IMG/VR virus record: IMGVR_UViG_3300031413_000624
Direction: 5' to 3' (one strand)
DNA: 64,000 bases
Origin: a virus
Shown here: piece after piece, positions 5,022 to 57,847 of the stretch
Layout: each line of letters opens with the position of its first letter
Numbering within the stretch: position 1 is the first letter of the stretch
Translations under genes and position numbers: made by a program
The notes under the pieces: generated by a model
Databases searched by the model: none
The model's input: only the letters and a program-made list of their open reading frames with translations
What the model was told of the DNA's origin: nothing

Positions 5022-6120
5022 TCAGGTTCCAGAAAGGCTTTTCAAACTCAGGCTGGATAAGCTTCCAGATGCTGTCAGAAATCTTCTTCTCAGAAGACTC
5101 ATTGTAGTGACCACCGCTATGACGGCTGAACAGCATACCTACAAGCTTCTTATCCTGCTGCTGCACTGCAAAAGCATAGTCCTTCTGAGTGAAGTCATCA
5201 GGAAGAGAGGTAATTACGCTGTTATACGTGTTCTCTACTTCCTCACGCAGAGCAGCGAACTCTGCCAGAAGGTTGTCACGGGTGCGCTCAACGAAGTCAA
5301 TGAACTCCTCAGGAAGGTCCTTCAACCAGCTGTCAAAGTCGTTACCACTGACAAGCATCTCCCAGATACGACGTGAAGATGCGCCAGTGATGATGCGATG
5401 AAGCTGAACGTAGTCGGCCTGCTTAATCTTCACACGAGTGTCAGTGTTCAGGAAGTGCACAACCATACCCTCAGCGTTCTCACGCGGAGTTGCAGTAAGC
5501 GCCTCAGCAAGGTTCGTGTACTGGAACTGCTCAACCTTGTTCCACTTCCACTCATCAATCTGGGATGCAGGCTCGCTGACACCAGTCTCAATGTTTACAC
5601 GGGCAATCAGGATAAGGTCATCCATCTCACCGTAGTTCAGCACAATACGGTTGGTCGGGTAGATAATCTCCCAAATGTACGTGTAGCCCTCAGCAGGCTC
5701 CCACTGACCGTCATACAGCTCCAAGTAACGCGCCGTTGCATGCTGAGCCTGCTCAGAAGCAAAGGAACCACGAGTGGAGATGTTCAGCGTGCCATCAGGA
5801 GTGCGGTAAGAGATACCCATGCTACCGTCAGCCTTATCGGAGACAATAGCAGGACCAGTCAGAAGAGCCTGGTCAACATCAGGCTCGTTGTGGTTGAAGA
5901 ACTTACCCAGAGGACGGGAAACAATTTCCTTTGTCTCAGCGTCGACAATAAGACCACGTGCTGCCAAAGTTGCAGGGTTCCAAGCGCGCTCAAACTGAGC
6001 GACCTGTGAGTAGTCGTAAATCTCCAACGGCAGAGTAGGGTGTACCTGCTTATTGATGTGCTTTGCCGCGAATGCTGCATCCCACATTTCCTTCGGAGCA
6101 ATGTCATAAATAGTTGACAT
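4990..6120 (-). CDS. RNA ligase family protein (paralog A)
   Basis: KxDG nucleotidyltransferase motif I (VSDKADGSMGISY); about 45% identical by eye to the 16133..17371 product. Confidence 0.7.
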   Translation of the reverse strand: MSTIYDIAPKEMWDAAFAAKHINKQVHPTLPLEIYDYSQVAQFERAWNPATLAARGLIVDAETKEIVSRPLGKFFNHNEPDVDQALLTGPAIVSDKADGSMGISYRTPDGTLNISTRGSFASEQAQHATARYLELYDGQWEPAEGYTYIWEIIYPTNRIVLNYGEMDDLILIARVNIETGVSEPASQIDEWKWNKVEQFQYTNLAEALTATPRENAEGMVVHFLNTDTRVKIKQADYVQLHRIITGASSRRIWEMLVSGNDFDSWLKDLPEEFIDFVERTRDNLLAEFAALREEVENTYNSVITSLPDDFTQKDYAFAVQQQDKKLVGMLFSRHSGGHYNESSEKKISDSIWKLIQPEFEKPFWNLNGKVESDDNE

Positions 6121-7172: not shown

Positions 7173-7174
7173 AG

Positions 7175-7193
7175 TTGAGCTGAGTCCACTCAA
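7175..7193. promoter_or_regulatory. HAIR-like inverted repeat (HspR operator-type) upstream of dnaK
   Basis: TTGAGC-tgagtcc-ACTCAA matches the actinobacterial CTTGAGT-N7-ACTCAAG consensus. Confidence 0.5.
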
Positions 7194-7196
7194 CTA

Positions 7197-7213
7197 TTTT
7201 TCGTCAAAATGAC
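7197..7213. promoter_or_regulatory. TTTTTCGTCA-N3-TGAC operator-like motif (copy 1)
   Basis: tttttcgtcaaaatgac; same motif recurs at 25069 and 56233. Confidence 0.45.
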
Positions 7214-7271
7214 CTCTATTGAAAAAATGGTGTATGCTGTCATCATAAGTTCAACGAAAGGGTAACATAAA

Positions 7272-9125
7272 ATGGCTCGTACAATTGGTATCGACCTTGG
7301 AACCACAAACTCAGCTGCTGCAATCCTTGAAGGTGGAGAAGCGACAGTCATTGCAAACGCGGAAGGTGTTCGCACCACCCCATCCATTGTCGCATTCACA
7401 AAAGATGGTGACACGCTCGTCGGTGAAACCGCAAAACGTCAGGCAGTCACCAACGTTGACCGCACCATCCGCTCTGTAAAGCGCCACATGGGTACCACTT
7501 GGTCAACCACCATTGAGGGTAAGAAGTACACTGCTCAGGAAATCTCTGCCCGTATCCTCATGAAGCTCAAAAAAGATGCAGAGACTTACCTTGGTGAAGA
7601 TGTTGACTCCGCTGTCATCACCGTTCCTGCCTACTTCAATGACGCGGAGCGTCAGGCAACCAAAGAAGCTGGTGAGATTGCTGGACTAAAAGTTCTCCGT
7701 ATCGTCAATGAGCCTACCGCCGCAGCAATTGCATACGGTCTTGACAAGGTAAAAGAGTCCGAAACTGTTCTCATCTACGACCTCGGTGGTGGAACCTTCG
7801 ACGTGTCCCTTCTTGACATTGACAAAGACTCTGATGACGGCTTCGCAACCATTGAGGTACGTGCAACCGCAGGTGATAACCGACTCGGTGGCGATGACTG
7901 GGACAAGGCCCTGGTTGATTACATCAACGAGCAGTTCAAGGCTGCTTCTGGTGTTGACATCACAGGTGACAAGATTGCTCAGCAGCGTATCCGCGAGGGT
8001 GCAGAGCAGGCTAAGAAAGAGCTTTCCAGCGGTAGCAGCACAAGCGTTCAGCTCCCGTATATCTCTCTCACCTCTGAGGGTCCTCTGAACTTGGATGTTA
8101 CTATTACCCGTGCGAAGTTTGAAGAGTTGACCAAACCTCTCCTTGACCGCACTAAGAAGCCATTTGAGCAGGTTCTTGCCGATGCTGGTATTACCACAAG
8201 TGACATTGCGAACGTTATTCTTGTTGGTGGTTCAACTCGTATGCCTGCTGTTGTTGACCTGGTGAAGTCTTTGACAGGCAAGCAGCCCTCCCAGAATGTG
8301 AACCCTGATGAGGTTGTTGCTCTCGGTGCAGCTGTTCAGGCTGGTGTTGTGACTGGTGAGCGTAAGGATATCCTCCTGATTGACGTTACCCCGCTGTCTC
8401 TTGGTTTGGAGACTGCGGGTGGAGTTATGACGAAGCTCATTGAGCGGAACACTGCTATTCCCACTAAGCGGAGTGAGACCTTCACTACTGCGGTTGATAA
8501 CCAGCCGTCTGTTGCTGTTCAGGTCTTCCAGGGTGAGCGTGAGTTTACTCGTGATAACAAGAAGCTCGGTCAGTTTGAGTTGACAGGTATCGCTCCTGCT
8601 CCTCGTGGCCTTCCTCAGATTGAGGTAACTTTCGACATTGACGCAAACGGTATCGTTCACGTCTCTGCGAAGGATAAGGGTACTGGCCGCGAGCAGAAGA
8701 TTACCATCACAGGTGGTTCTTCCCTTTCCCAGGCTGACATCGACCGTATGGTCCGTGACGCTGAGGAGCACGCTGCTGAGGACAAGGCTAAGCGTGAGTC
8801 CCAGGACCTTCGCAACCAGGCTGAGCAGTTGACCTACTCTGCTGAGAAGGTTCTTGTGGACTACGCTGACCAGGTTCCTGCTGATGTCAAAGAAGAAGTA
8901 ACCAATGATATCAACGCTTTGAAGAAGGCTTTGAACGAGGGTTCTGATGATGATGTGAAAGCTGCTGTGGAGCGTTTGAACCAGTCTCAGCAGAAGGTTG
9001 GTCAGAGCGTCTACGGTAACCAGGCACAGGCTGACTCAGCCCCTTCTGAGGAAGCTAACCAGGCTCCTGCTGGTGGTAGCGAGGATGAAGATGTTGTTGA
9101 CGCAGAAATTGTTGACGAGGACTAA
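7272..9125 (+). CDS. dnaK: molecular chaperone DnaK (Hsp70)
   Basis: [16 protein letters not shown] and other Hsp70 signatures; strongly actinobacterial-like N-terminus; 617 aa. Confidence 0.95.
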
Positions 9126-17372: not shown

Positions 17373-17657
17373 TCATCGGTGAAGTAGGTAGTACGCTGCT
17401 AAAACGATAATTCCAATAGCATTCAAAGACATCAGCCCGTATCCAATGTATTTCGCTGGACGGGCTGATGTCTTTTGGTATGACCAGCTGGATAGCGTTA
17501 TGAGAAGAGCCATCAGGAAGCCCGCTCCGCTGATGATCCATTCCTGGGTAGAGAATCCTACAATGGTGAAGAAAAGAAGCGCATCAGCGTAGAGGAAGCT
17601 TACCCAGTATAAGGTTCTGTCAGGTTTGACTGTTTCTACTTCCTTTACTGTATTCAT
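17373..17657 (-). CDS. small membrane protein, uncertain
   Basis: ORF with TM helices; contains an internal hairpin at 17427-17475. Confidence 0.3.
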   Translation of the reverse strand: MNTVKEVETVKPDRTLYWVSFLYADALLFFTIVGFSTQEWIISGAGFLMALLITLSSWSYQKTSARPAKYIGYGLMSLNAIGIIVLAAYYLLHR

Positions 17658-17695
17658 GTAAGTATTAATCGGCTAATTTTGAAAAAGGGGTCAAT

Positions 17696-17716
17696 TTATC
17701 GTCGTTATGACGATAA
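17696..17716. promoter_or_regulatory. palindromic operator-like site TTATCGTC-N5-GACGATAA
   Basis: Perfect 8-bp arms; a TAGAAT hexamer 7 nt downstream (17723-17728); start of the NAD operon. Confidence 0.45.
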
Positions 17717-17763
17717 ACATGTTAGAATATCCTCAGAAGATAATAACAAAGGACACCTTCCTC

Positions 17764-18717
17764 ATGAAAGTATACAACGACACAGTTGTAATGACTGACT
17801 CCCTGATCCGCATGCTTGATGGATATCGCGCTGAACGAGGTTTTAACGCCTCAGAATGGGTTGAGCGTAAAGTTGCTCTCATCAACGCTTACTTCGCGCA
17901 GAGCGGCCTGTCAGGGGCTGTTGTAGGGGTTTCAGGAGGTATTGACTCCGCTGTTGCTCTTTCTCTTGTCGTGAAAGCATCACAGGTGGAAGACAGTCCA
18001 ATCAAGAAGATTGTTCCGATTCTTCTCCCCGCATTTTCCTACACAGGAGCTACCCGTCAGAACGAAGCTACAAACCGAGCAGAAAGCCTGTGCACAAAAC
18101 TTGGACTCGAAGCAGTCATCTTCCATCAGCTCACACCAATGGCTGAAATGATGAATGCAGAATTAGAGAACGTTTTGGGAATTCGGGCAACCCCTTGGGC
18201 TAAAGGCCAGTTAGTTGCATACACCCGAACCCCAATCCTGTACAGCACCTGCTCCATTCTCACGGACGCAGGATATCCAGCCTTAGTCATTGGAACTACA
18301 AATCTGTCAGAAGGTGGATACTTAGGTTATGTCGGTAAAGCCGCTGATGGCATGGTTGACTTACAGGTAGTGAGTGACTTGTACAAATCAGAAGTGTACC
18401 AAGTTGCGGAACTGCTAGAAGTACCAAACCTCATTATGAAAGCAACGCCAACAGGAGACATGTTTGACGGTCGGGATGACGAAACAGTGTTCGGAGCTTC
18501 CTACGACTTCGTGGAACTCTATCACCTCTGGCTGCAAAATGGCTCCGACCCTGAACTTCTGAAAGATGAAACATTCGCAGCAGGAGCGGCGAACCTTGAA
18601 AAGATGCACGCTTACAATGGTCATAAATATCTGTACGGTACACCATCAGTTCATTTGGATATCCTTCGTGCAGACATTCCTGGTGGTTGGAATAACAAAG
18701 CTTGGAGCGCTAAATAA
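17764..18717 (+). CDS. PP-loop ATP pyrophosphatase (NadE-like)
   Basis: SGGIDSAV PP-loop motif; AAAGGA RBS before 17764. Confidence 0.6.
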   Translation: MKVYNDTVVMTDSLIRMLDGYRAERGFNASEWVERKVALINAYFAQSGLSGAVVGVSGGIDSAVALSLVVKASQVEDSPIKKIVPILLPAFSYTGATRQNEATNRAESLCTKLGLEAVIFHQLTPMAEMMNAELENVLGIRATPWAKGQLVAYTRTPILYSTCSILTDAGYPALVIGTTNLSEGGYLGYVGKAADGMVDLQVVSDLYKSEVYQVAELLEVPNLIMKATPTGDMFDGRDDETVFGASYDFVELYHLWLQNGSDPELLKDETFAAGAANLEKMHAYNGHKYLYGTPSVHLDILRADIPGGWNNKAWSAK

Positions 18718-19457
18718 TGGCGACCAAATTTGTCAACCAAATTGACTTCACTATTCCAGCTATCCAACATGAAGTTGAAGTGGAGCCACTTCCTGAGTTA
18801 GACCGTTCAGCAGTGGTTATCCCTAACCTTATCCCAAGCAAAGAACGAGTTCATATCCTCCAAGAACTCAGTAAAGCGAACTGGCAGCCAGTATCCATCA
18901 CTGGAATGTCAGGTAACTGGAAGCCAGGGGATGAAATTGGGTCTTACCGAGCCTCAAACTACACACCAGAATACGCCACTGTATTATGGGACAGAATCAA
19001 ACACGCTTTCCCAACGGTTCGAGTGTTCAATCAGGAAGACAATACTGATTTTGATGACCATGAACTCTGGGAACCTGTTGGAGTTTCTCCACTGCTTCGT
19101 TTCATCAAATACGAAGATGGAGGCTGGCTTGTTGTTCACTATGACGCTCCATATGTTGAAGATGAGGACACTAGGACACTACAAAGCTTTGTTATCTACT
19201 TAGAACAGAGTCCCACGATTGCAGGTGGAGCAACTCGATACCTGCGAGACCCGCAAGCAGGGATTCCTATTGCTCAACGTATTTTAGATGACCAGAAACG
19301 TGCAGCAACCGAGGATGAAGTCCGGCTTCGTTTCACCCCTGAAAATGGAACAGGTGTCATCTTTGACCACAGACTTCTTCACGATGCTGCGCTCGTTCAG
19401 GGCGAAGGTCACAAAATTATTATCCGTACCGACATTATGTACAGGAAAGTCCGATGA
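18717..19457 (+). CDS. 2OG-Fe(II) oxygenase superfamily protein
   Basis: HYDAP (HxD) ... DHRLLH facial-triad arrangement; start/stop overlap with neighbours. Confidence 0.5.
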   Translation: MATKFVNQIDFTIPAIQHEVEVEPLPELDRSAVVIPNLIPSKERVHILQELSKANWQPVSITGMSGNWKPGDEIGSYRASNYTPEYATVLWDRIKHAFPTVRVFNQEDNTDFDDHELWEPVGVSPLLRFIKYEDGGWLVVHYDAPYVEDEDTRTLQSFVIYLEQSPTIAGGATRYLRDPQAGIPIAQRILDDQKRAATEDEVRLRFTPENGTGVIFDHRLLHDAALVQGEGHKIIIRTDIMYRKVR

Positions 19458-20965
19458 AAACAGACCGCTATTTTGATGCGTTATACGAACGCACTCACAG
19501 TGAACAGGATTTAACAACAGCTGGTTGGTTAGAAAAGCCAACACAAGTGAACCAGCAGTTACGGTATTACACAACGCCAGTTGATGCTATCCGTGATGCA
19601 GGCAAGGAAGAAGTCTCTGTTCTGTTTTACCCAGGATGTTTCGCCCCAGTGCATGAAGGTCATATCACTGCAATGCGCTTAGCCAAGGAAGCTGTCGAAG
19701 CGACAGGCGAAACAGTGGTAGCTGGTTTCTTCACACCAGACCATGATGACTACATTATGCGTAAAACGCATGATGAACGTTTCACAGCAGCGAACCGGGT
19801 AGAGCTTCTACATGCAGTAACTAAAACAGAAACATGGATGCAGGTAGACCCTTGGGCTGCTCAGTATGCTCCTACTGATTTGAACTTCACCACATTGTAT
19901 GATCGTTTGAATCAATACCTCAAACGTTGGGTACCAAATGTCAAAGTAAAGCTCTACATGGTGTTTGGTGGAGACAACTACATGTTCGCTAATGCTTTCA
20001 CTGAATATGGGTATGGGGTTTGCGTTCCTCGTGAAGGAGTTTCTATTGACTGGACCACAGTCCATCCTGATGCTCAAAAGCGTGTAGTTCTCAGTACGAA
20101 AAGCAGCACAAATCATTCATCCACAGCGGCCCGAGCAATGTACTCAAACCCTGCTGAAAAAGGTGGTCGGAGTACGATGGGTAAGCGCTACGTCCTTCGC
20201 AACGATTTAGATGCAGCATTTGAGAACACTACGGAGTACCCGAATTATCTTATCGCTCAGACTCTGCAGATTCTCTTCCACTCACATCTTCCAGAGGATA
20301 TCAGTGTCCAAACAGTTGATATTCATGACCAGTTCCAGCATCATCAGGAAAAAGCTGGGATCATTTCAATGGATTCATTTTGGAAAGCTGAATACAATCT
20401 TGACATTACCAGACTCTTCAATGCAGCCGGTGGCCAGAATCATCCATTACGGTACATCAACCGCCCAGGTTCCGATGATTTGCAAACACAAATCAAACGA
20501 ATCCCAGAAGGTGAATATGTACTTGCAGATGACGACATCGCTACTGGTGAAACCATGAAATTTGTTTCCAATGTGTTAGGCACTCACGGCATCAGAATTG
20601 TGGACACTCTAAGTCTTATCGATGAACTCAACACTGACCTGTACGATTTAGCTGACATGAGAGACTATGTGTTAGGGGCAAAGAATGGTGGGTTGACCGT
20701 TGTTGCTCCAAACGGTCAAGTGACACGAATGCCGTACTTTGCTTCCTATGTGAACGTTTCAGCAAGAACACGTATTCAGCCTAATAAAGCTCGCAGTTTC
20801 TCTATTGAAATTTGGAAGCTCAATCGCTCTTTGTACAAGAACAGTAGCCTTACCGTAGGAGACATCAAAGAGCATCAAGATTTCACCCTCTTTGGGTTCT
20901 CAGAGCAGATGCGGCTTGTTGAATTATGTGAGAAGCATTTAGAGCTGTTAGGTGTGCAAAGCTGA
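19454..20965 (+). CDS. nucleotidyltransferase (NMNAT-like, HxGH) fused to a type I phosphoribosyltransferase domain
   Basis: PVHEGH motif N-terminal; VLADDDIATGETM PRPP-binding motif C-terminal. Confidence 0.6.
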   Translation: MKTDRYFDALYERTHSEQDLTTAGWLEKPTQVNQQLRYYTTPVDAIRDAGKEEVSVLFYPGCFAPVHEGHITAMRLAKEAVEATGETVVAGFFTPDHDDYIMRKTHDERFTAANRVELLHAVTKTETWMQVDPWAAQYAPTDLNFTTLYDRLNQYLKRWVPNVKVKLYMVFGGDNYMFANAFTEYGYGVCVPREGVSIDWTTVHPDAQKRVVLSTKSSTNHSSTAARAMYSNPAEKGGRSTMGKRYVLRNDLDAAFENTTEYPNYLIAQTLQILFHSHLPEDISVQTVDIHDQFQHHQEKAGIISMDSFWKAEYNLDITRLFNAAGGQNHPLRYINRPGSDDLQTQIKRIPEGEYVLADDDIATGETMKFVSNVLGTHGIRIVDTLSLIDELNTDLYDLADMRDYVLGAKNGGLTVVAPNGQVTRMPYFASYVNVSARTRIQPNKARSFSIEIWKLNRSLYKNSSLTVGDIKEHQDFTLFGFSEQMRLVELCEKHLELLGVQS

Positions 20966-20982
20966 TACGATAGAACTTACTT

Positions 20983-21576
20983 ATGTTCGCTGTACTCACC
21001 GCCTTAGGCTTATCTGTTTCCGCAGGACTCAACGCGTACCTGCCGTTACTTGCTGTTGGTCTTCTCACCAAATACACTGATGTGTTTCAGCTTCCCAACG
21101 GATGGTCCTGGCTGAATCAAGACTGGGTGCTGATTCTATTCGGGTTACTTGCATTAGCTGAGTTTGTCGCAGATAAAGTTCCAGCGATTGACACATTCAA
21201 CGACATTATTCAAACAGTAGTACGCCCTTCATCAGGAGGTGTCGTATTTGCAGTAGGAATAGGTTCACATACTACTCCTATCACAAATTGGGATGCGTTC
21301 ATTCATTCACAAGCGTTTCCTAGCATTGTTGTAGGTGTGGTGATTGCATTGATTCCACATTTGATGAAGATGCTCATCCGTCCAGTCTTAAATGCAACAA
21401 CTGCTGGGTTAGCTACTCCGTTAGTGAGTTTCGGTGAAGATGTCATTTCGGTAGCATTGATTGCATTATCCATTTTCCTTCCTATCCTTGTCCCAGTAGC
21501 AGTAGTGCTACTCTTCATCATCGCTGTGCGAGTTATCAAACGGTTGCGCAGTAGGACGCAGGTGCAAACAGCATGA
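20983..21576 (+). CDS. polytopic membrane protein (DUF4126-like)
   Basis: Four or more TM helices. Confidence 0.45.
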   Translation: MFAVLTALGLSVSAGLNAYLPLLAVGLLTKYTDVFQLPNGWSWLNQDWVLILFGLLALAEFVADKVPAIDTFNDIIQTVVRPSSGGVVFAVGIGSHTTPITNWDAFIHSQAFPSIVVGVVIALIPHLMKMLIRPVLNATTAGLATPLVSFGEDVISVALIALSIFLPILVPVAVVLLFIIAVRVIKRLRSRTQVQTA

Positions 21577-22247
21577 GAGCATGTCAAGCTAAAAATCCAG
21601 AGACCTGTAAATACCACGGCTATGCTGTGTATGAGCAAAAACGGAATATGCAATCTCCTTCATGGACTACAGAAGAATCTTATGATTTCTTGACGATGCA
21701 TGGAGTAAATCTTCTTCCTCTTGGAACAGTGAAGAAGTGGGACTCAGAGCAGGATTATAAAGCATCATTCTATGAAGTTGAAAATGAATTAACTGGATTG
21801 TTCTCTGGTGGTGGGAGTGGTGAAGAGAAGATAGCTCTTATTGACAAAGACCTTCCTTTTGTTGTGAAATTCGCTGGAGACCCAGATTACCAGAATGGTG
21901 CAGATGGTTTATCCTCCACCTTCCAAGAGTATGTCGCAAGCCGCGATGGTTTGAACGGTCATGATGTAATGGCAAGAACTGAACTATTCTGGCATAAGAA
22001 TGGTTTCCCTATTATTGTTCAAGAAAAGCTGACCCACCTGACCCGTAAAGTGGTAACAGAGCTTGCTGAGCAATTGCCCTGGTTGCCAAAATCTTTCCAC
22101 TCATATGCTCAGATAGGACAAGATGGTTCTGGTAAATGGCGTATTTACGATTTGGATGCGGGAACGCTTATGGACTTCTACCCTGAAGAAACAGGTCAGA
22201 AAGTTCTTGACCAAGTATGGGATGAGTTTTTCCAATTGAAGAAATAG
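21573..22247 (+). CDS. hypothetical protein with N-terminal CQAKNPETCKYHG motif
   Basis: Cys-His motif family member; overlapped start. Confidence 0.5.
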   Translation: MRACQAKNPETCKYHGYAVYEQKRNMQSPSWTTEESYDFLTMHGVNLLPLGTVKKWDSEQDYKASFYEVENELTGLFSGGGSGEEKIALIDKDLPFVVKFAGDPDYQNGADGLSSTFQEYVASRDGLNGHDVMARTELFWHKNGFPIIVQEKLTHLTRKVVTELAEQLPWLPKSFHSYAQIGQDGSGKWRIYDLDAGTLMDFYPEETGQKVLDQVWDEFFQLKK

Positions 22248-25068: not shown

Positions 25069-25093
25069 TTTTTCGTCATTTTGACGATATAAT
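25069..25093. promoter_or_regulatory. TTTTTCGTCA-ttt-TGACGA palindrome abutting a TATAAT -10 box (copy 2)
   Basis: tcgtca(25073-78)-ttt-tgacga(25082-87) followed by tataat 25088-25093, upstream of nadE. Confidence 0.5.
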
Positions 25094-25128: not shown

Positions 25129-25974
25129 ATGACCACTTTACAGAAGCACATCATTGAAACCCTCGGAGTGAAAGCGAAAGTCAACCCAGAGGAAGAGTTC
25201 CGCACTCGTGTAGACTTCCTCAAAGCTTTCACTAAAAATGCAGGAACACGTGGATTCGTCCTCGGGATCAGTGGAGGGCAGGATAGTGCTCTGGCTGGAT
25301 ACGTTGCTCAGACAGCTGTTCGTGAACTCCGTGATGAAACAGGCAAAGACTATGAATTCCTTGCCCTGCTCCTTCCATACGGTACACAGCGGGACGGGGA
25401 TGAAGCAGTAACCATCGCAAAAGACTTTATCAAAGCCGACCAGGTAATTGAATACAACATCAAAGACACTGTAGACGCTTTCGCAAACACCTTCAACACT
25501 ATTGCAGATGCTGACCCTGCAAACGGTGACAACCTTGCCGACTACCACAAAGGTAACGTCAAAGCACGTGTTCGCGCCATCACACAGTACGCATATGCTG
25601 GACAGCGACAGCTTCTGGTTGTTGGGACCGACCATGCAGCAGAAGCTGTCAGCGGCTTTTTCACGAAGTTCGGAGATGGTGCTGCTGACATTCTCCCTCT
25701 TAGCGGTTTGAACAAACGCCAGGGAAAAGAAGTGCTTCGCTTCCTGGGTGCTCCTGAGTTTGTTATCACTAAGGCTCCTACTGCTGACCTTTTGGACACT
25801 AACGCAGGTCAGGCTGATGAGACTGAACTTGGCATCACCTACGATGTGCTGGATGACTACCTTGAAGGCAAGACTGTCGCAGAAGCTGCTCAGCAGAAGA
25901 TTGAACTTCGTTACCTGGTGACTGAACACAAGCGTCAGCAGCCTGTTGACCCTTTTGCTGACTGGTGGAAGTAA
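25129..25974 (+). CDS. nadE: NH3-dependent NAD+ synthetase
   Basis: [12 protein letters not shown]-loop; length and overall pattern of NadE. Confidence 0.85.
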
Positions 25975-40731: not shown

Positions 40732-40961
40732 TGAGTATACTCCTTCATACAGATGGGCACGGTTCGTTCTGGCAAGAGTTTATCTCAATTGCTACGGACC
40801 CTGCCCATCTGTTATTCGAGCTGATCTTCTCAGTATTATTTGATGTAGTATTAGTCTCAGTCATTTGGGGTGTCATCATCAAGAAAATCATTATCCCCAA
40901 ATTAAAACGCGATGTTCATCGTGAAATTGATGCTGAACATGGGTTGAAGCCTCACGATTGA
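40728..40961 (+). CDS. small membrane protein
   Basis: ORF with one TM helix. Confidence 0.35.
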   Translation: MMSILLHTDGHGSFWQEFISIATDPAHLLFELIFSVLFDVVLVSVIWGVIIKKIIIPKLKRDVHREIDAEHGLKPHD

Positions 40962-42400
40962 TGAGCAGCTTTACTTCGTATAATTCCCCAGATGAATAAA
41001 CCTGTGGCAGTAACAGTGAGCAACAATCCAGTTACTGTAATAGCGGAATGGAATTGCAAATGGATGAGGGTACTTTCCATGGCTTTTCCAGTGAATACGT
41101 TAGCTGGGATGAAAGCAGATAAGATAGCTCCGGCTACTGTAATGCTTACAGCTGCACATATCTGTGAAATGGTATCAACCAGCGCCGAGCCTGTTGATGT
41201 GTGAGTATGGGGCAGTCCTCGGAAAACACTCATACCAGCAACTAAACCATTCACACGCACTCCTGCTGCGATGAGGATAAGGGATACCGCGATCCAGCCA
41301 TAGCTGATAGGGCTACCGAACGTGTAAACCAGCATGCCTACGATAATGGATAGCCCACTGTATAAAGAAGCTTTTTGATTACCGAAACGTTCTACTATTT
41401 TGTTGACCAGTGGACCAACAGCCAGCAACGTAATCACTTGTGGGAGTAGCCCTAATGCAGCGAGTACTGGACTCCAATGATAATCCAGTTGCAGTTGTAA
41501 CATCACAACATAGCCCAGTCCAGCTGTAATGATGCTGGTGCTTGCTTTGTACAGCAATCCACTAGAAACTAATGGTAGTCTCAAAAGACTAAATGGGATT
41601 AGAGGGTTTTGAGATTTTTTCTCTTGCTTTACGAAAAAGGCTCCAAATAACACTGCGCTTGCTGTGAGACTCCAGAATTCCCATGAGATAGCACCATACT
41701 GTGCAGCAGCGTCAAGGAGTAGCAAAACTGATACGATTGCTAATGTGCCAAAGGTACCTCCAGCTACATCTAAGGGCTTCCGAATACTTTTTTGATTTCG
41801 CCATTCAGGAAGGCTGAGATATAAACTGAGGAATGCTACAGCTGCAATAGGAATGTTGACCAGTATCAGAAACTCCCATGATGCAACTGCTAACACAGCC
41901 CCGCCAATAGTTGGTCCGATGCTCAGTCCGACCAACCCGACTGTTGAGATGAAAGTCATCGCCCGCATTTGCAGCGATTCACTATTGAACAGCTTGAAGG
42001 TTAGCGACAAAGTAAGAGGAGTTGTCATTGCTGCGGCTAAGCCCATCAGCGCCCTCACCGCTATCAGTTCATAGATGTTCGTGACATCTAAGACTAATAA
42101 GCTTGACACTCCGAGAAGTGCTAACCCACTCAGCATGAGCTTTTTGGGGCTGAATTGGTCAGCGATAGACCCGAATAACAGCATAAGACTTCCGAAGATG
42201 ACAGAGTAGGCACTAGTAGCGAGACTTAATGAGGAGGTAGAAGCATTGAGAGTTTTCCCAATAGTCGGTAACGCTACTGTCAATACTGAATTATCAAGCA
42301 TTTCAAACAGGAACACGATGGATAACCCTGTAAGAGCAAGCCAGTTCTGTTTGAGAGATTGGGGTTGTTCCACAATAAAATGTTTTTGGAGACGGTTCAT
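40952..42400 (-). CDS. MFS transporter, 14-TM DHA2-type
   Basis: MFS motif LDNSVLTVALPTI; 482 aa, about 14 TM helices. Confidence 0.8.
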   Translation of the reverse strand: MNRLQKHFIVEQPQSLKQNWLALTGLSIVFLFEMLDNSVLTVALPTIGKTLNASTSSLSLATSAYSVIFGSLMLLFGSIADQFSPKKLMLSGLALLGVSSLLVLDVTNIYELIAVRALMGLAAAMTTPLTLSLTFKLFNSESLQMRAMTFISTVGLVGLSIGPTIGGAVLAVASWEFLILVNIPIAAVAFLSLYLSLPEWRNQKSIRKPLDVAGGTFGTLAIVSVLLLLDAAAQYGAISWEFWSLTASAVLFGAFFVKQEKKSQNPLIPFSLLRLPLVSSGLLYKASTSIITAGLGYVVMLQLQLDYHWSPVLAALGLLPQVITLLAVGPLVNKIVERFGNQKASLYSGLSIIVGMLVYTFGSPISYGWIAVSLILIAAGVRVNGLVAGMSVFRGLPHTHTSTGSALVDTISQICAAVSITVAGAILSAFIPANVFTGKAMESTLIHLQFHSAITVTGLLLTVTATGLFIWGIIRSKAAHQS

Positions 42401-56232: not shown

Positions 56233-56249
56233 ATTTTTCGTCAATTTGA
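56233..56249. promoter_or_regulatory. TTTTTCGTCA-att-TGAC motif (copy 3), next to TTGCCG-N17-TACACT
   Basis: Seen at 56233-56249; promoter hexamers at 56258 and 56281. Confidence 0.45.
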
Positions 56250-56346
56250 CTGAAAAACTTGCCGATACTCTTTAAGAGTGATACACTAAGAACATAACGA
56301 ACGGGGTTACTTGAACGCCCGAGAAAAACAACAAGGAGCAAAAATT

Positions 56347-56970
56347 ATGTGGTACATCATCCACACCAATTATGACCTCACCGAAGGTCGCGGCTGGGAA
56401 ATTCCCACCACTATTACTCAGGACCGTAACGTCGCCCTCTGGTACGCTCACACCTATCGCCCATTCTACGGCCAGGTGCAGGGCATCCACGCTGTACATG
56501 GTGCCGACAAGCTGACTTATGACCGTGAGCATGAATTCTTGAAGACCTACCCTCGTGGTGAAATTGTTGACCCTGAGTTGAACGCTCAGTGGAAGCAGTA
56601 CGAAAAGACTTTCACTGACCAGGGCAGGAAGTTGCCTGAACCTCCCATGAACCCTCAGACAGTGTATGTCGTCGGTTATGTAACGGACCCAGGTATTGGT
56701 GGGACAGTCATTCGGAACCAGTTCATGCCTGCCCAGTTCTTCACGGATTATAACGAAGCACAGCAGGCAGCTATTGCAGGTGCTGATGCAGGTAATAAAA
56801 TCTGGCACATCATTGCATTGGAAACAGACACCTACTGTGGGACTCGTGCTATGGCGAAGGAACGTATCTTCACCTACCCTGTTCCGAAGCCCGCTATTGT
56901 TGAAACTGAACAGATTCAGCAGTATGATATTGATGAACTGACAGACCTGTTCACAGTAGGAGCGAAGTAA
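56347..56970 (+). CDS. hypothetical protein
   Basis: AAGGAG RBS before the ATG at 56347. Confidence 0.5.
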   Translation: MWYIIHTNYDLTEGRGWEIPTTITQDRNVALWYAHTYRPFYGQVQGIHAVHGADKLTYDREHEFLKTYPRGEIVDPELNAQWKQYEKTFTDQGRKLPEPPMNPQTVYVVGYVTDPGIGGTVIRNQFMPAQFFTDYNEAQQAAIAGADAGNKIWHIIALETDTYCGTRAMAKERIFTYPVPKPAIVETEQIQQYDIDELTDLFTVGAK

Positions 56971-56971
56971 C

Positions 56972-57175
56972 ATGGCAAACAATAACGAATTCACAGTTGA
57001 GAATCTGCAACGGATTATCAACTTGATGAATCACGGAAAAACTGACTTGACAGGTGTGTCGGAAATGAACATTAAGTTCGCTCCGAATGTTTCAGGGCGA
57101 ATTGTCGCTAAGAATGATGACACATTTGTTTTCGTTCCCAACAGTCACCAAGACATTGACCAATTCGGTCGCTAA
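56972..57175 (+). CDS. small hypothetical protein
   Basis: ORF, start adjacent to the upstream stop. Confidence 0.35.
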   Translation: MANNNEFTVENLQRIINLMNHGKTDLTGVSEMNIKFAPNVSGRIVAKNDDTFVFVPNSHQDIDQFGR

Positions 57176-57191
57176 GATTTAGGAGAATATC

Positions 57192-57779
57192 ATGACAAAG
57201 GGTTTGCTTATCGTTGACGTGCAGAACGATTTTATTGAAGGGGGTAGCCTGGCAGTCGCAGGAGGAGAGAAAGTCGCTCTAACGCTTGCAGAGCACCTCC
57301 TGGATGCTGATTACCATGCGCTCATCACCACTCAGGACTGGCACATTGAGCCTGGAAACCATTGGGCAGAAACTCCCGACTATGTGGACACCTGGCCTGT
57401 GCATTGCGCTGCAAACACTGCTGGTGCATCGGTACGCCCTGAGCTGGCGGCTGCCATTGTTTCCAAGGTCAGCGAACAGCGAAGCCTTCGGTATTTGCGC
57501 ATCGTCAAGGGTGAGTATGAAGCAGCTTACTCAGGTTTTGAAGGCCGCGACTTTCTTGGAGGGAATGAGAAGGTTCCTACCCTTATCCGTGAGCTTGGTG
57601 TAGATGAACTGGACATTGTAGGACTGGCGACAGACCATTGTGTTCGCGCTACTGTTCTGGACGCTCTGAAAGCGGGATTCAAGGTAAACGTCCTCACCGA
57701 CTATGTTGCAGGTGTCGACCCTGAGCGCTCCAAAGCAGCTCTTGCTGAAATGGAAACAGCAGGCGCAACTCTCGTCTAA
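57192..57779 (+). CDS. pncA: isochorismatase-family hydrolase, nicotinamidase (PncA)-like
   Basis: LLIVDVQNDF; catalytic GLATDHCV. Confidence 0.7.
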   Translation: MTKGLLIVDVQNDFIEGGSLAVAGGEKVALTLAEHLLDADYHALITTQDWHIEPGNHWAETPDYVDTWPVHCAANTAGASVRPELAAAIVSKVSEQRSLRYLRIVKGEYEAAYSGFEGRDFLGGNEKVPTLIRELGVDELDIVGLATDHCVRATVLDALKAGFKVNVLTDYVAGVDPERSKAALAEMETAGATLV

Positions 57780-57847
57780 ATCAAGATAACGAAGAAGCTG
57801 ACTGGCATGAAATACGCCAGTCAGCTTCTTCGCGTTAGGAATGAATT

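Follow-up and report, generated by a model that had tools for sequence, protein, structure and literature searches.

NrtR-family repressors join a Nudix-like sensor to a winged-helix DNA-binding domain, and they bind palindromic boxes of 21 bp that have GT-N7-AC at their core (PMC2330246; comparative genomics of Rodionov et al. 2008). The box of Mycobacterium smegmatis NrtR, GTTTTCGA-N7-TCGAAAAC, spans 23 bp; it was mapped by electrophoretic mobility shift assay (EMSA) and surface plasmon resonance (SPR), and ADP-ribose releases the protein from it (PMC6800001). NiaR and NadR likewise act at palindromic repressor sites on NAD-gene promoters, with different core sequences: TGT-N4-ACA (type I) or ACA-N5-TGT (type II) for NiaR and TGTTTA-N6-TAAACA for NadR (PMC2330245). 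Here we examine a recurrent palindromic motif in a 64,000-nt stretch of the virus record IMGVR_UViG_3300031413_000624 (the window, by which we mean that whole stretch), which lies inside an 878,479-bp metagenomic contig (ENA ERZ27247405 k141_830180) of a huge phage-like element. We consider it likely, from comparison with bacterial loci and with relatives of the element, that the motif is the operator of an NrtR-family repressor. It would then belong to a regulator family already described, whose box it matches, and would not be a phage operator of a new kind; an earlier note on this DNA had missed this match. NrtR boxes themselves are already known, and what is new here is to see boxes of the NrtR type at NAD genes in a huge phage-like element.

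Phage NAD restoration is a current topic in phage defence. The literature passages at hand on this topic cover enzymes, with none on gene control, and the passages on NrtR together with phage contain no NrtR box on a phage gene; a survey of viral NAD and ADP-ribose systems predicts that anti-ADP-ribosylation systems of bacteria have Nudix-helix-turn-helix (Nudix-HTH) regulators (PMC9503650). The boxes described here amount to a testable hypothesis, that NAD-rebuilding genes of a huge phage are repressed by an NrtR-type protein and released by ADP-ribose, and operators of this kind can trace the host regulators that huge phages plug into.

Four intergenic sites and their conservation

The earlier note had reported three near-identical copies of the motif, and all three are present: a sequence scan for TTTTTCGTCA-N3-TGAC finds exact copies at 7197-7213, 25069-25085 and 56234-56250 (the last had been placed one base low, at 56233-56249). 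What it had described as a related palindrome opening the NAD operon is actually a perfect 23-bp palindrome and gives a fourth site. The T-tract that the earlier note counted in the motif is explained by comparison with the NrtR box, in which it is part of the half-site. In the 23-bp frame the sites, all on the + strand, are as follows.

7197..7219, +, half-degenerate box upstream of dnaK, TTTTTCGTCA-AAA-TGACCTCTAT, in which only the left arm and TGAC match
17695..17717, +, palindrome upstream of the NAD operon, TTTATCGTCG-TTA-TGACGATAAA, with an extended -10 element, TGtTAGAAT, downstream at 17720-17728
25069..25091, +, putative box of the NrtR type in the nadE promoter, TTTTTCGTCA-TTT-TGACGATATA, which at the right overlaps the -10 hexamer TATAAT (25088-25093)
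56234..56256, +, box upstream of the pncA operon, TTTTTCGTCA-ATT-TGACTGAAAA, with a perfect left arm and a right arm reading TGAC and then a 1-nt insertion before the A-run

All four sites are intergenic and upstream of + strand genes, and GT-N7-AC occurs inside the 23-bp frame in each of them. With 14 specified bases, about 5e-4 exact matches are expected in 64 kb on both strands, and three are seen. A scan of both strands with the 17-mer at two or fewer mismatches gives nine strand-wise matches where 0.80 are expected, a number attained in none of 100 shuffles. The shorter core GTCA-N3-TGAC occurs four times in the window, three of these being sites listed above. No further copy was found in the 20 kb flanking the window (same contig or near-identical copies).

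Three of the four sites are at NAD-gene promoters (nadE, NAD operon and pncA operon), the exception being dnaK. The tie to NAD genes is stronger than had been claimed, in that what was previously called only gene 56347 is the first gene of an operon that also encodes a nicotinamidase of the PncA type. Promoter assignments here and below are consensus readings of the sequence. By these, motif and -10 hexamer are contiguous (0 nt) at nadE, whereas 5 nt separate them at the NAD operon and about 17 to 30 nt at dnaK and pncA. As the earlier note had it, TGACGA, the right arm at nadE, does lie directly against TATAAT; a promoter scan called no sigma-70 -35/-10 pair at this box.

NadE homologues on contigs 0.3-0.8 Mb long form a graded series of 80, 73, 71, 68 and 64% identity. 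We compared the nadE upstream region in four lineages, namely the window and the relatives L013, L015 and L137, which stand at 80%, 71% and 64% NadE identity.

Window, cTTTTTCGTCA-TTT-TGACGATATAAT
L013, cTTTTTCGTCA-ATA-TGACGATATACT
L015, cGTTTTCGTCA-GAA-TGACGATATACT
L137, aTTTTTCGTCA-CTT-TGACGATATAAT

The 12 arm bases TCGTCA/TGACGA are invariant in all four lineages, while the spacer (TTT, ATA, GAA or CTT) and the flanks vary. In every lineage the box stands against TATAAT or TATACT, and the rest of the aligned intergenic region has diverged. Arms that do not vary, a 3-bp centre that does and a constant junction with the -10 hexamer make up, as read from this alignment, the footprint of a dimeric protein on a core promoter. 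MerR-type activation within the 19-bp spacer at nadE (cTGACc-19-TATAAT) was considered and rejected, the -35-like hexamer not being conserved in L013, L015 or L137.

The other NAD-gene boxes are also kept. At the NAD operon L013 has ATTATCGTCA-TTG-TGACGATAAA followed by the extended -10 element TGgTATGAT (TGtTAGAAT in the window), and at pncA the sole internal change in the 82%-identity relative L012 is the spacer, ATT to ATG. The nadE box is thus found in four lineages and the NAD-operon and pncA boxes in two each; the dnaK box is not kept. Further relatives carry boxes as well: L141 has TCGTCA-AGT-TGAAGA upstream of a pnuC transporter gene, and L138, which is more distant, has a variant box, TTAAAGTCA-N3-TGAC, at 982, 9983 and 19121, at nadE, a pnuC-nadR pair and a fatty-acid desaturase gene. 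The variant suggests that operator and regulator, or host, co-diverged. Judging from these alignments, the boxes are under purifying selection across the relatives, and because they stand at nadE, the NAD operon, pncA and pnuC, the regulon follows NAD genes through the clade. We found no close DNA relatives among deposited phages and no NadE or DnaK relatives in IMG/VR.

These results support reading the motif as an operator-like palindrome for a dimeric regulator. The earlier note had gone further and proposed that such a regulator co-controls the chaperone and the NAD genes; the palindrome does tie the NAD genes together, but the chaperone half is not supported as it was put, the dnaK copy being absent in three relatives and having only one good arm.

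The same palindrome in bacteria and its likely reader

We scanned one genome per bacterial species (596 Gb) for TTWTCGTCANNNTGACGAWAA. The pattern was built from the phage sites and hence maps that sequence rather than the full NrtR motif. It occurs at 120 or more genome loci against about 35 expected by chance. Among the matches listed, 46 loci are from Actinomycetota (60-76% GC) and about 28 from Oscillospiraceae; the actinobacterial matches are notable because an AT-rich 21-mer is expected to be rare at 60-76% GC. The counts of neighbouring genes that follow likewise refer to the matches listed. Clustering of the flanking open reading frames (ORFs) revealed a family of 228-270-aa proteins in 24 loci, and a profile made from it located the gene in 25 loci, at a distance of 1-116 bp to the palindrome in every case. 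Pfam identifies this family as NUDIX plus NrtR_WHD (PF21906), that is, NrtR, and all 25 loci are actinobacterial. The other actinobacterial neighbours are SPFH (25 loci), glutamine-dependent NadE, ADP-ribosylglycohydrolase, SIR2_2 and 2OG-Fe(II) oxygenase.

The window sites share with the actinobacterial NrtR boxes a 23-bp palindrome, the GT-N7-AC core and a position at NAD-gene promoters, and the identical TTWTCGTCA-N3-TGACGAWAA adjoins nrtR in the 25 genomes. With the M. smegmatis box they have in common a TTTTCG-N9-CGAAAA frame, which the motif studied here shows as TTTTCGTCA-N3-TGACGAAAA. They differ from the actinobacterial boxes in lying in a huge phage-like element of 45% GC in which no nrtR was found in the roughly 180 kb examined, and in their targets, which here belong to amidation and salvage (nadE, NMNAT, pncA) and not to nadABC. 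The operators of the other NAD repressors can be set aside: the sites read TCGTCA-N3-TGACGA, not the TGT-N4-ACA or ACA-N5-TGT of NiaR (YrxA), and the enterobacterial NadR operator TGTTTA-N6-TAAACA is not present at them.

Several observations weigh against assigning the motif to NrtR. First, the exact mycobacterial consensus is not matched within three mismatches; only the frame and outer arms agree, and the inner TCA/TGA differ. Second, in Oscillospiraceae the palindrome lies upstream of thiolase genes in about 26 loci (for example L017, L067 and L106; Oscillibacter), typically as TTTTCGTCAAGGTGACGAAAA, and is placed between thiolase and a PpiC-like gene; in L017 and one other locus it is about 150-200 bp upstream of the thiolase gene. 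Neither nrtR nor another regulator was found near these sites within the 8-kb loci, and another factor may read the same palindrome in this family. Third, the dnaK and pncA sites have degenerate right arms, and their boxes are located upstream of the -35 hexamer predicted there, not over the core promoter. Fourth, a profile search found no NrtR homologue in the window or in L001-L016 (about 125 kb), nor do the Pfam tables of L137-L141 contain one, which brings the sequence examined to about 180 kb in all.

Some of these points would fit an operator of a different dimeric regulator, belonging to the element or to its host and of a temporal or stress class that includes dnaK, with the resemblance to NrtR being convergent. 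The missing nrtR, the Oscillospiraceae thiolase sites with no nrtR nearby, and the copy at dnaK, which is not an NAD gene, all favor it. We nonetheless think it unlikely: 25 independent genomes of actinobacteria have the palindrome next to nrtR; across five lineages the boxes go with NAD genes (nadE, NMNAT operon, pncA and pnuC-nadR), not with dnaK; and homologous 2OG oxygenases sit beside the box in both Streptomyces and the element, the protein of the NAD operon being 37% identical to a Streptomyces protein located 170 bp from the same palindrome.

Another possible objection is that the motif is a promoter element rather than a repressor site, whether a -35-like hexamer (TTGACG or ATGACC), a UP-like T-tract or the site of an element-encoded sigma factor. 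Its right arm does resemble TTGACA, TGACCT at dnaK lies 17 nt before TATGCT, and the - strand sequence TTGACG-18-CAAAAT at 56244 was called promoter-like. However, with distances to the -10 hexamer of 0, 5 and about 17 to 30 nt no fixed element fits all the sites, conservation extends symmetrically over both arms and leaves the 3-bp centre free, as is characteristic of a dimer site, and the motif adjoins nrtR in bacteria, so that this explanation appears highly improbable. Least credible of all is that the sites are chance matches, hairpin or terminator remnants or a small repeat with no regulatory role: the only exact match in a palindrome scan of viral contigs (L005) is indeed the stem of a long terminator-like hairpin, and the T-run at dnaK follows a hairpin, but three exact copies far exceed the chance expectation given above, the arms are invariant over lineages at 64-100% while their flanks have diverged, the NAD boxes overlap the -10 region and are therefore upstream of the transcript, and a terminator would need stronger stems than these, which have 4-6 bp.

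The dnaK copy, the host and the regulator

NrtR-type control, if it operates in this element, probably leaves dnaK largely aside. Two further features are needed here.

7174..7194, HAIR-like inverted repeat GTTGAGC-N7-ACTCAAC directly upstream of the dnaK box, the sole window match to CTTGAGT-N7-ACTCAAG at three or fewer mismatches
7272..9125, +, dnaK (Hsp70), a doubtful target (HSP70 9e-232; 72-75% identical to Microbacteriaceae DnaK)

The box is absent upstream of dnaK in L139 (80% DnaK identity), L141 (76%) and L137 (the 64%-NadE lineage), and the dnaK copy is confined to the near-identical population of this genome. Comparison with these relatives reveals a conserved dnaK promoter signal, ...AAAATGGTGTAnnnT, with TATGCT as the -10 hexamer in the window. 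The TGACCT of the box occupies the -35 position of this promoter, the T-run forms the tail of the hairpin before it, and all that is extra in the window is CGTCAAAA. The copy may be a young and weak NrtR site, or a near-coincidence of T-tail and -35 element, for which we roughly estimate a chance of a few per cent given the context. We take the copy to be recent, lineage-specific and probably weak or non-functional. Even if the NAD-gene boxes are ordinary NrtR sites, the first reading of the motif is still corrected, to an NAD regulon from a chaperone-plus-NAD regulon.

HspR is the actinobacterial heat-shock repressor, and the consensus of its operator, HAIR, is CTTGAGT-N7-ACTCAAG. The repeat at 7174-7194 has three mismatches to this consensus, and L139 has CCTGAGT-N7-ACTCAGG at the same place upstream of dnaK (5901-5921), with two. 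CIRCE, the HrcA operator (TTAGCACTC-N9-GAGTGCTAA), has no window match at three or fewer mismatches. Since a HAIR-like repeat is present and CIRCE is not, dnaK probably has its own heat-shock operator of actinobacterial type. The dnaK region thus resembles actinobacterial dnaK under HspR, and the HAIR-like repeat is an element separate from the TCGTCA motif. With the T-run directly after it, the repeat may double as a terminator of the upstream gene, although a terminator scan did not call it.

The DnaK protein is 72-75% identical to those of Leifsonia, Herbiconiux and other Microbacteriaceae, and about 50-60% identical in tblastn matches in a phage collection, several of which go under Firmicute-phage names. 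The NAD promoters have either a -10 element only or a TGn-extended -10. Together, DnaK similarity, box type, HAIR-like repeat and promoter type point to an actinobacterial host, and the host is probably an actinobacterium. From the boxes, the DnaK similarity and the HAIR-like repeat we thereby predict a host among the Actinomycetota for this uncultured element, whose size is in the record class. Two observations speak against it. The element has 45% GC, where Actinomycetota typically have more than 60%, and among named organisms its closest NadE relatives are those of Bacillaceae, at about 60% identity.

The regulator would be either a host NrtR or the product of an nrtR gene elsewhere in the genome of about 880 kb, and we lean slightly toward the host. 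No regulator was recognized beside the sites: the divergent 94-aa ORF adjoining the NAD operon (17373-17657) encodes a membrane protein, and a divergent 209-aa ORF and the 207-, 67- and 107-aa ORFs are without a DNA-binding signature.

Control by NrtR has a precedent among jumbo phages. In Bacillus phage G, gp273 (L142, record 200123-200878), annotated as a MutT/NUDIX hydrolase, is NUDIX plus NrtR_WHD and heads a pncA-pncB-nadD cluster. Like the element, phage G has its own NAD-salvage genes, and an NrtR-type protein stands at the head of the cluster. It differs in having a Bacillus host, and in that a regulator gene is seen there without the operator, whereas in the window the operators are seen without the regulator. 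A 636-kb uncultured phage, LR756504, also encodes an NrtR-like protein (L143 5995-6657). Phage-encoded NrtR-family regulators appear to go unannotated. No TCGTCA-N3-TGACGA box occurs upstream of gp273 or near the NrtR-like gene of LR756504, and phage G gp274, considered as a possible homologue of the 207-aa protein of the window, is not homologous.

NAD genes of the element and a possible mode of control

The genes downstream of the NAD-gene boxes, assigned by Pfam and NCBIfam searches, are as follows.

17707..22247, +, NAD operon
start 17707 or, more likely, 17764, +, NadE-like protein, first gene of the NAD operon
18717-19457, +, 2OG-Fe(II) oxygenase, NAD operon
19454-20965, +, NMNAT fused to a phosphoribosyltransferase (PRTase)-like domain, NAD operon, matched to NMNAT in PDB sequences (503 aa)
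20983-21576, +, DUF4126 protein, NAD operon
21573-22247, +, ORF with no assigned function, NAD operon
25129..25974, +, nadE, NH3-dependent NAD+ synthetase (Pfam NAD_synthase 1.7e-63; NCBIfam PRK00768 343 bits against a cut-off of 250)
56347..58687, +, pncA operon, in the order 207-aa protein, 67-aa protein, PncA-type nicotinamidase, 279-aa protein, the members other than PncA having no assigned function
57192-57779, +, PncA-type nicotinamidase, third gene (Isochorismatase 6e-21; NF008623 2.5e-32, 112 bits, below the 174-bit cut-off)

At nadE and the NAD operon the boxes fill the space up to the -10 hexamer (between -35 and -10). A dimeric NrtR bound there would block RNA polymerase, and, by analogy with known NrtR biology (PMC2330246, PMC6800001), ADP-ribose or a related product of NAD cleavage would release it. 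The ADP-ribose might come from the element's own ADP-ribosyltransferases and PARP, or from NAD-depleting host defences, so that NAD synthesis would be switched on while NAD was being consumed. A wider and more speculative scheme, which we regard as possible though doubtful, is that the element of about 880 kb wires nadE, the NMNAT-PRT fusion and pncA (in relatives also pnuC-nadR) to an ADP-ribose-sensing NrtR, borrowed from an actinobacterial host or self-encoded. Cleavage of NAD would then induce its own replenishment as a metabolite-triggered counter-defence, with recruitment of dnaK begun in one lineage.

Among described pathways, NARP1, NARP2 and NARP3 (PMC13464706, in the passages at hand) are likewise phage-encoded NAD-restoring enzymes; the pnuC-nadR pair of L138 is NARP3-like, and NMNAT is common to the window and NARP2. 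The window set (NadE, NadE-like protein, NMNAT-PRT fusion and PncA) is not one of the three pathways defined in those passages.

In the 503-aa protein the NMN/NaMN adenylyltransferase domain covers about residues 55-232, and a phosphoribosyltransferase-type motif, YVLADDDIATGETM, lies toward the C terminus. The fusion is conserved in L013 and L137, and its domain composition suggests that it could be a single-chain two-step NAD salvage enzyme. In the PDB sequence search it matched NMNAT only, and the 207-aa protein of the pncA operon had no match.

The mode of action of the pncA box is uncertain from its position. A candidate promoter, TTGCCG-17-TACACT, follows about 8 nt downstream of the box, and the box overlaps the -35 hexamer of the promoter-like site on the - strand at 56244, which would serve the divergent gene. 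The + strand gene at 56347 is called in all assemblies, and the operon has the same gene order in these and in L012; an overlapping - strand ORF (56272-57021) was rejected as a shadow ORF. The pncA leader (56288-56346, compared with L012 2320-2392), including the hairpin-capable CGGGGTTACTTGAACGCCCG, is almost invariant though the proteins are 82% identical, and may be a structured 5' untranslated region. Rfam gave no match for the leader at E <= 1 and none at the gathering threshold over the whole window, hence no riboswitch accounts for its conservation.

Independent assemblies with the same DnaK gave contigs of 828, 858, 878.6 and 883 kb (up to 883,042 bp). To our knowledge the largest phage genomes are of about 735 kb, and this element, if a phage, would exceed them. 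No capsid or terminase gene is in view in the window, and it is from gene content, which is typical of a huge phage, that we call the element phage-like: two Rnl1-type RNA ligases, two PNKPs, an Rnl2-like ligase, a CCA-adding enzyme, RNase H, NucS, dCMP deaminase, DNA methylases, gyrase A and B, a ClpB/C-type ATPase, DnaK, an NlpC/P60 peptidase, an ADP-ribosyltransferase and many ORFs with no family, with PARP, further ADP-ribosyltransferases and DnaG in the flanks. The intergenic regions of the window commonly contain promoters of the sigma-70 type and intrinsic terminators.

The NAD-consuming enzymes are clustered, with a WGR+PARP protein and at least four ADP-ribosyltransferase-family ORFs in about 85 kb (window 32385-33293; L009 4816-9257; L006 17936-18463), and the RNA-repair genes (two Rnl1, two PNKP, the Rnl2-like ligase and the CCA-adding enzyme) occur alongside them. 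Two membrane proteins, a YgjV-family protein (36398-37117, -) and an MFS transporter (40952-42400, -), could be importers of vitamins or niacin, the YgjV family being one that we take to be PnuC-related; neither has a box upstream. A tRNA-like gene at 36108-36236 (+) scores 26.4 bits with the Rfam tRNA model against a gathering threshold of 29 and is not called by ARAGORN; it has a 62-nt insertion in the anticodon region, inside which a stray TTTTTTCGTCA lies on the - strand.

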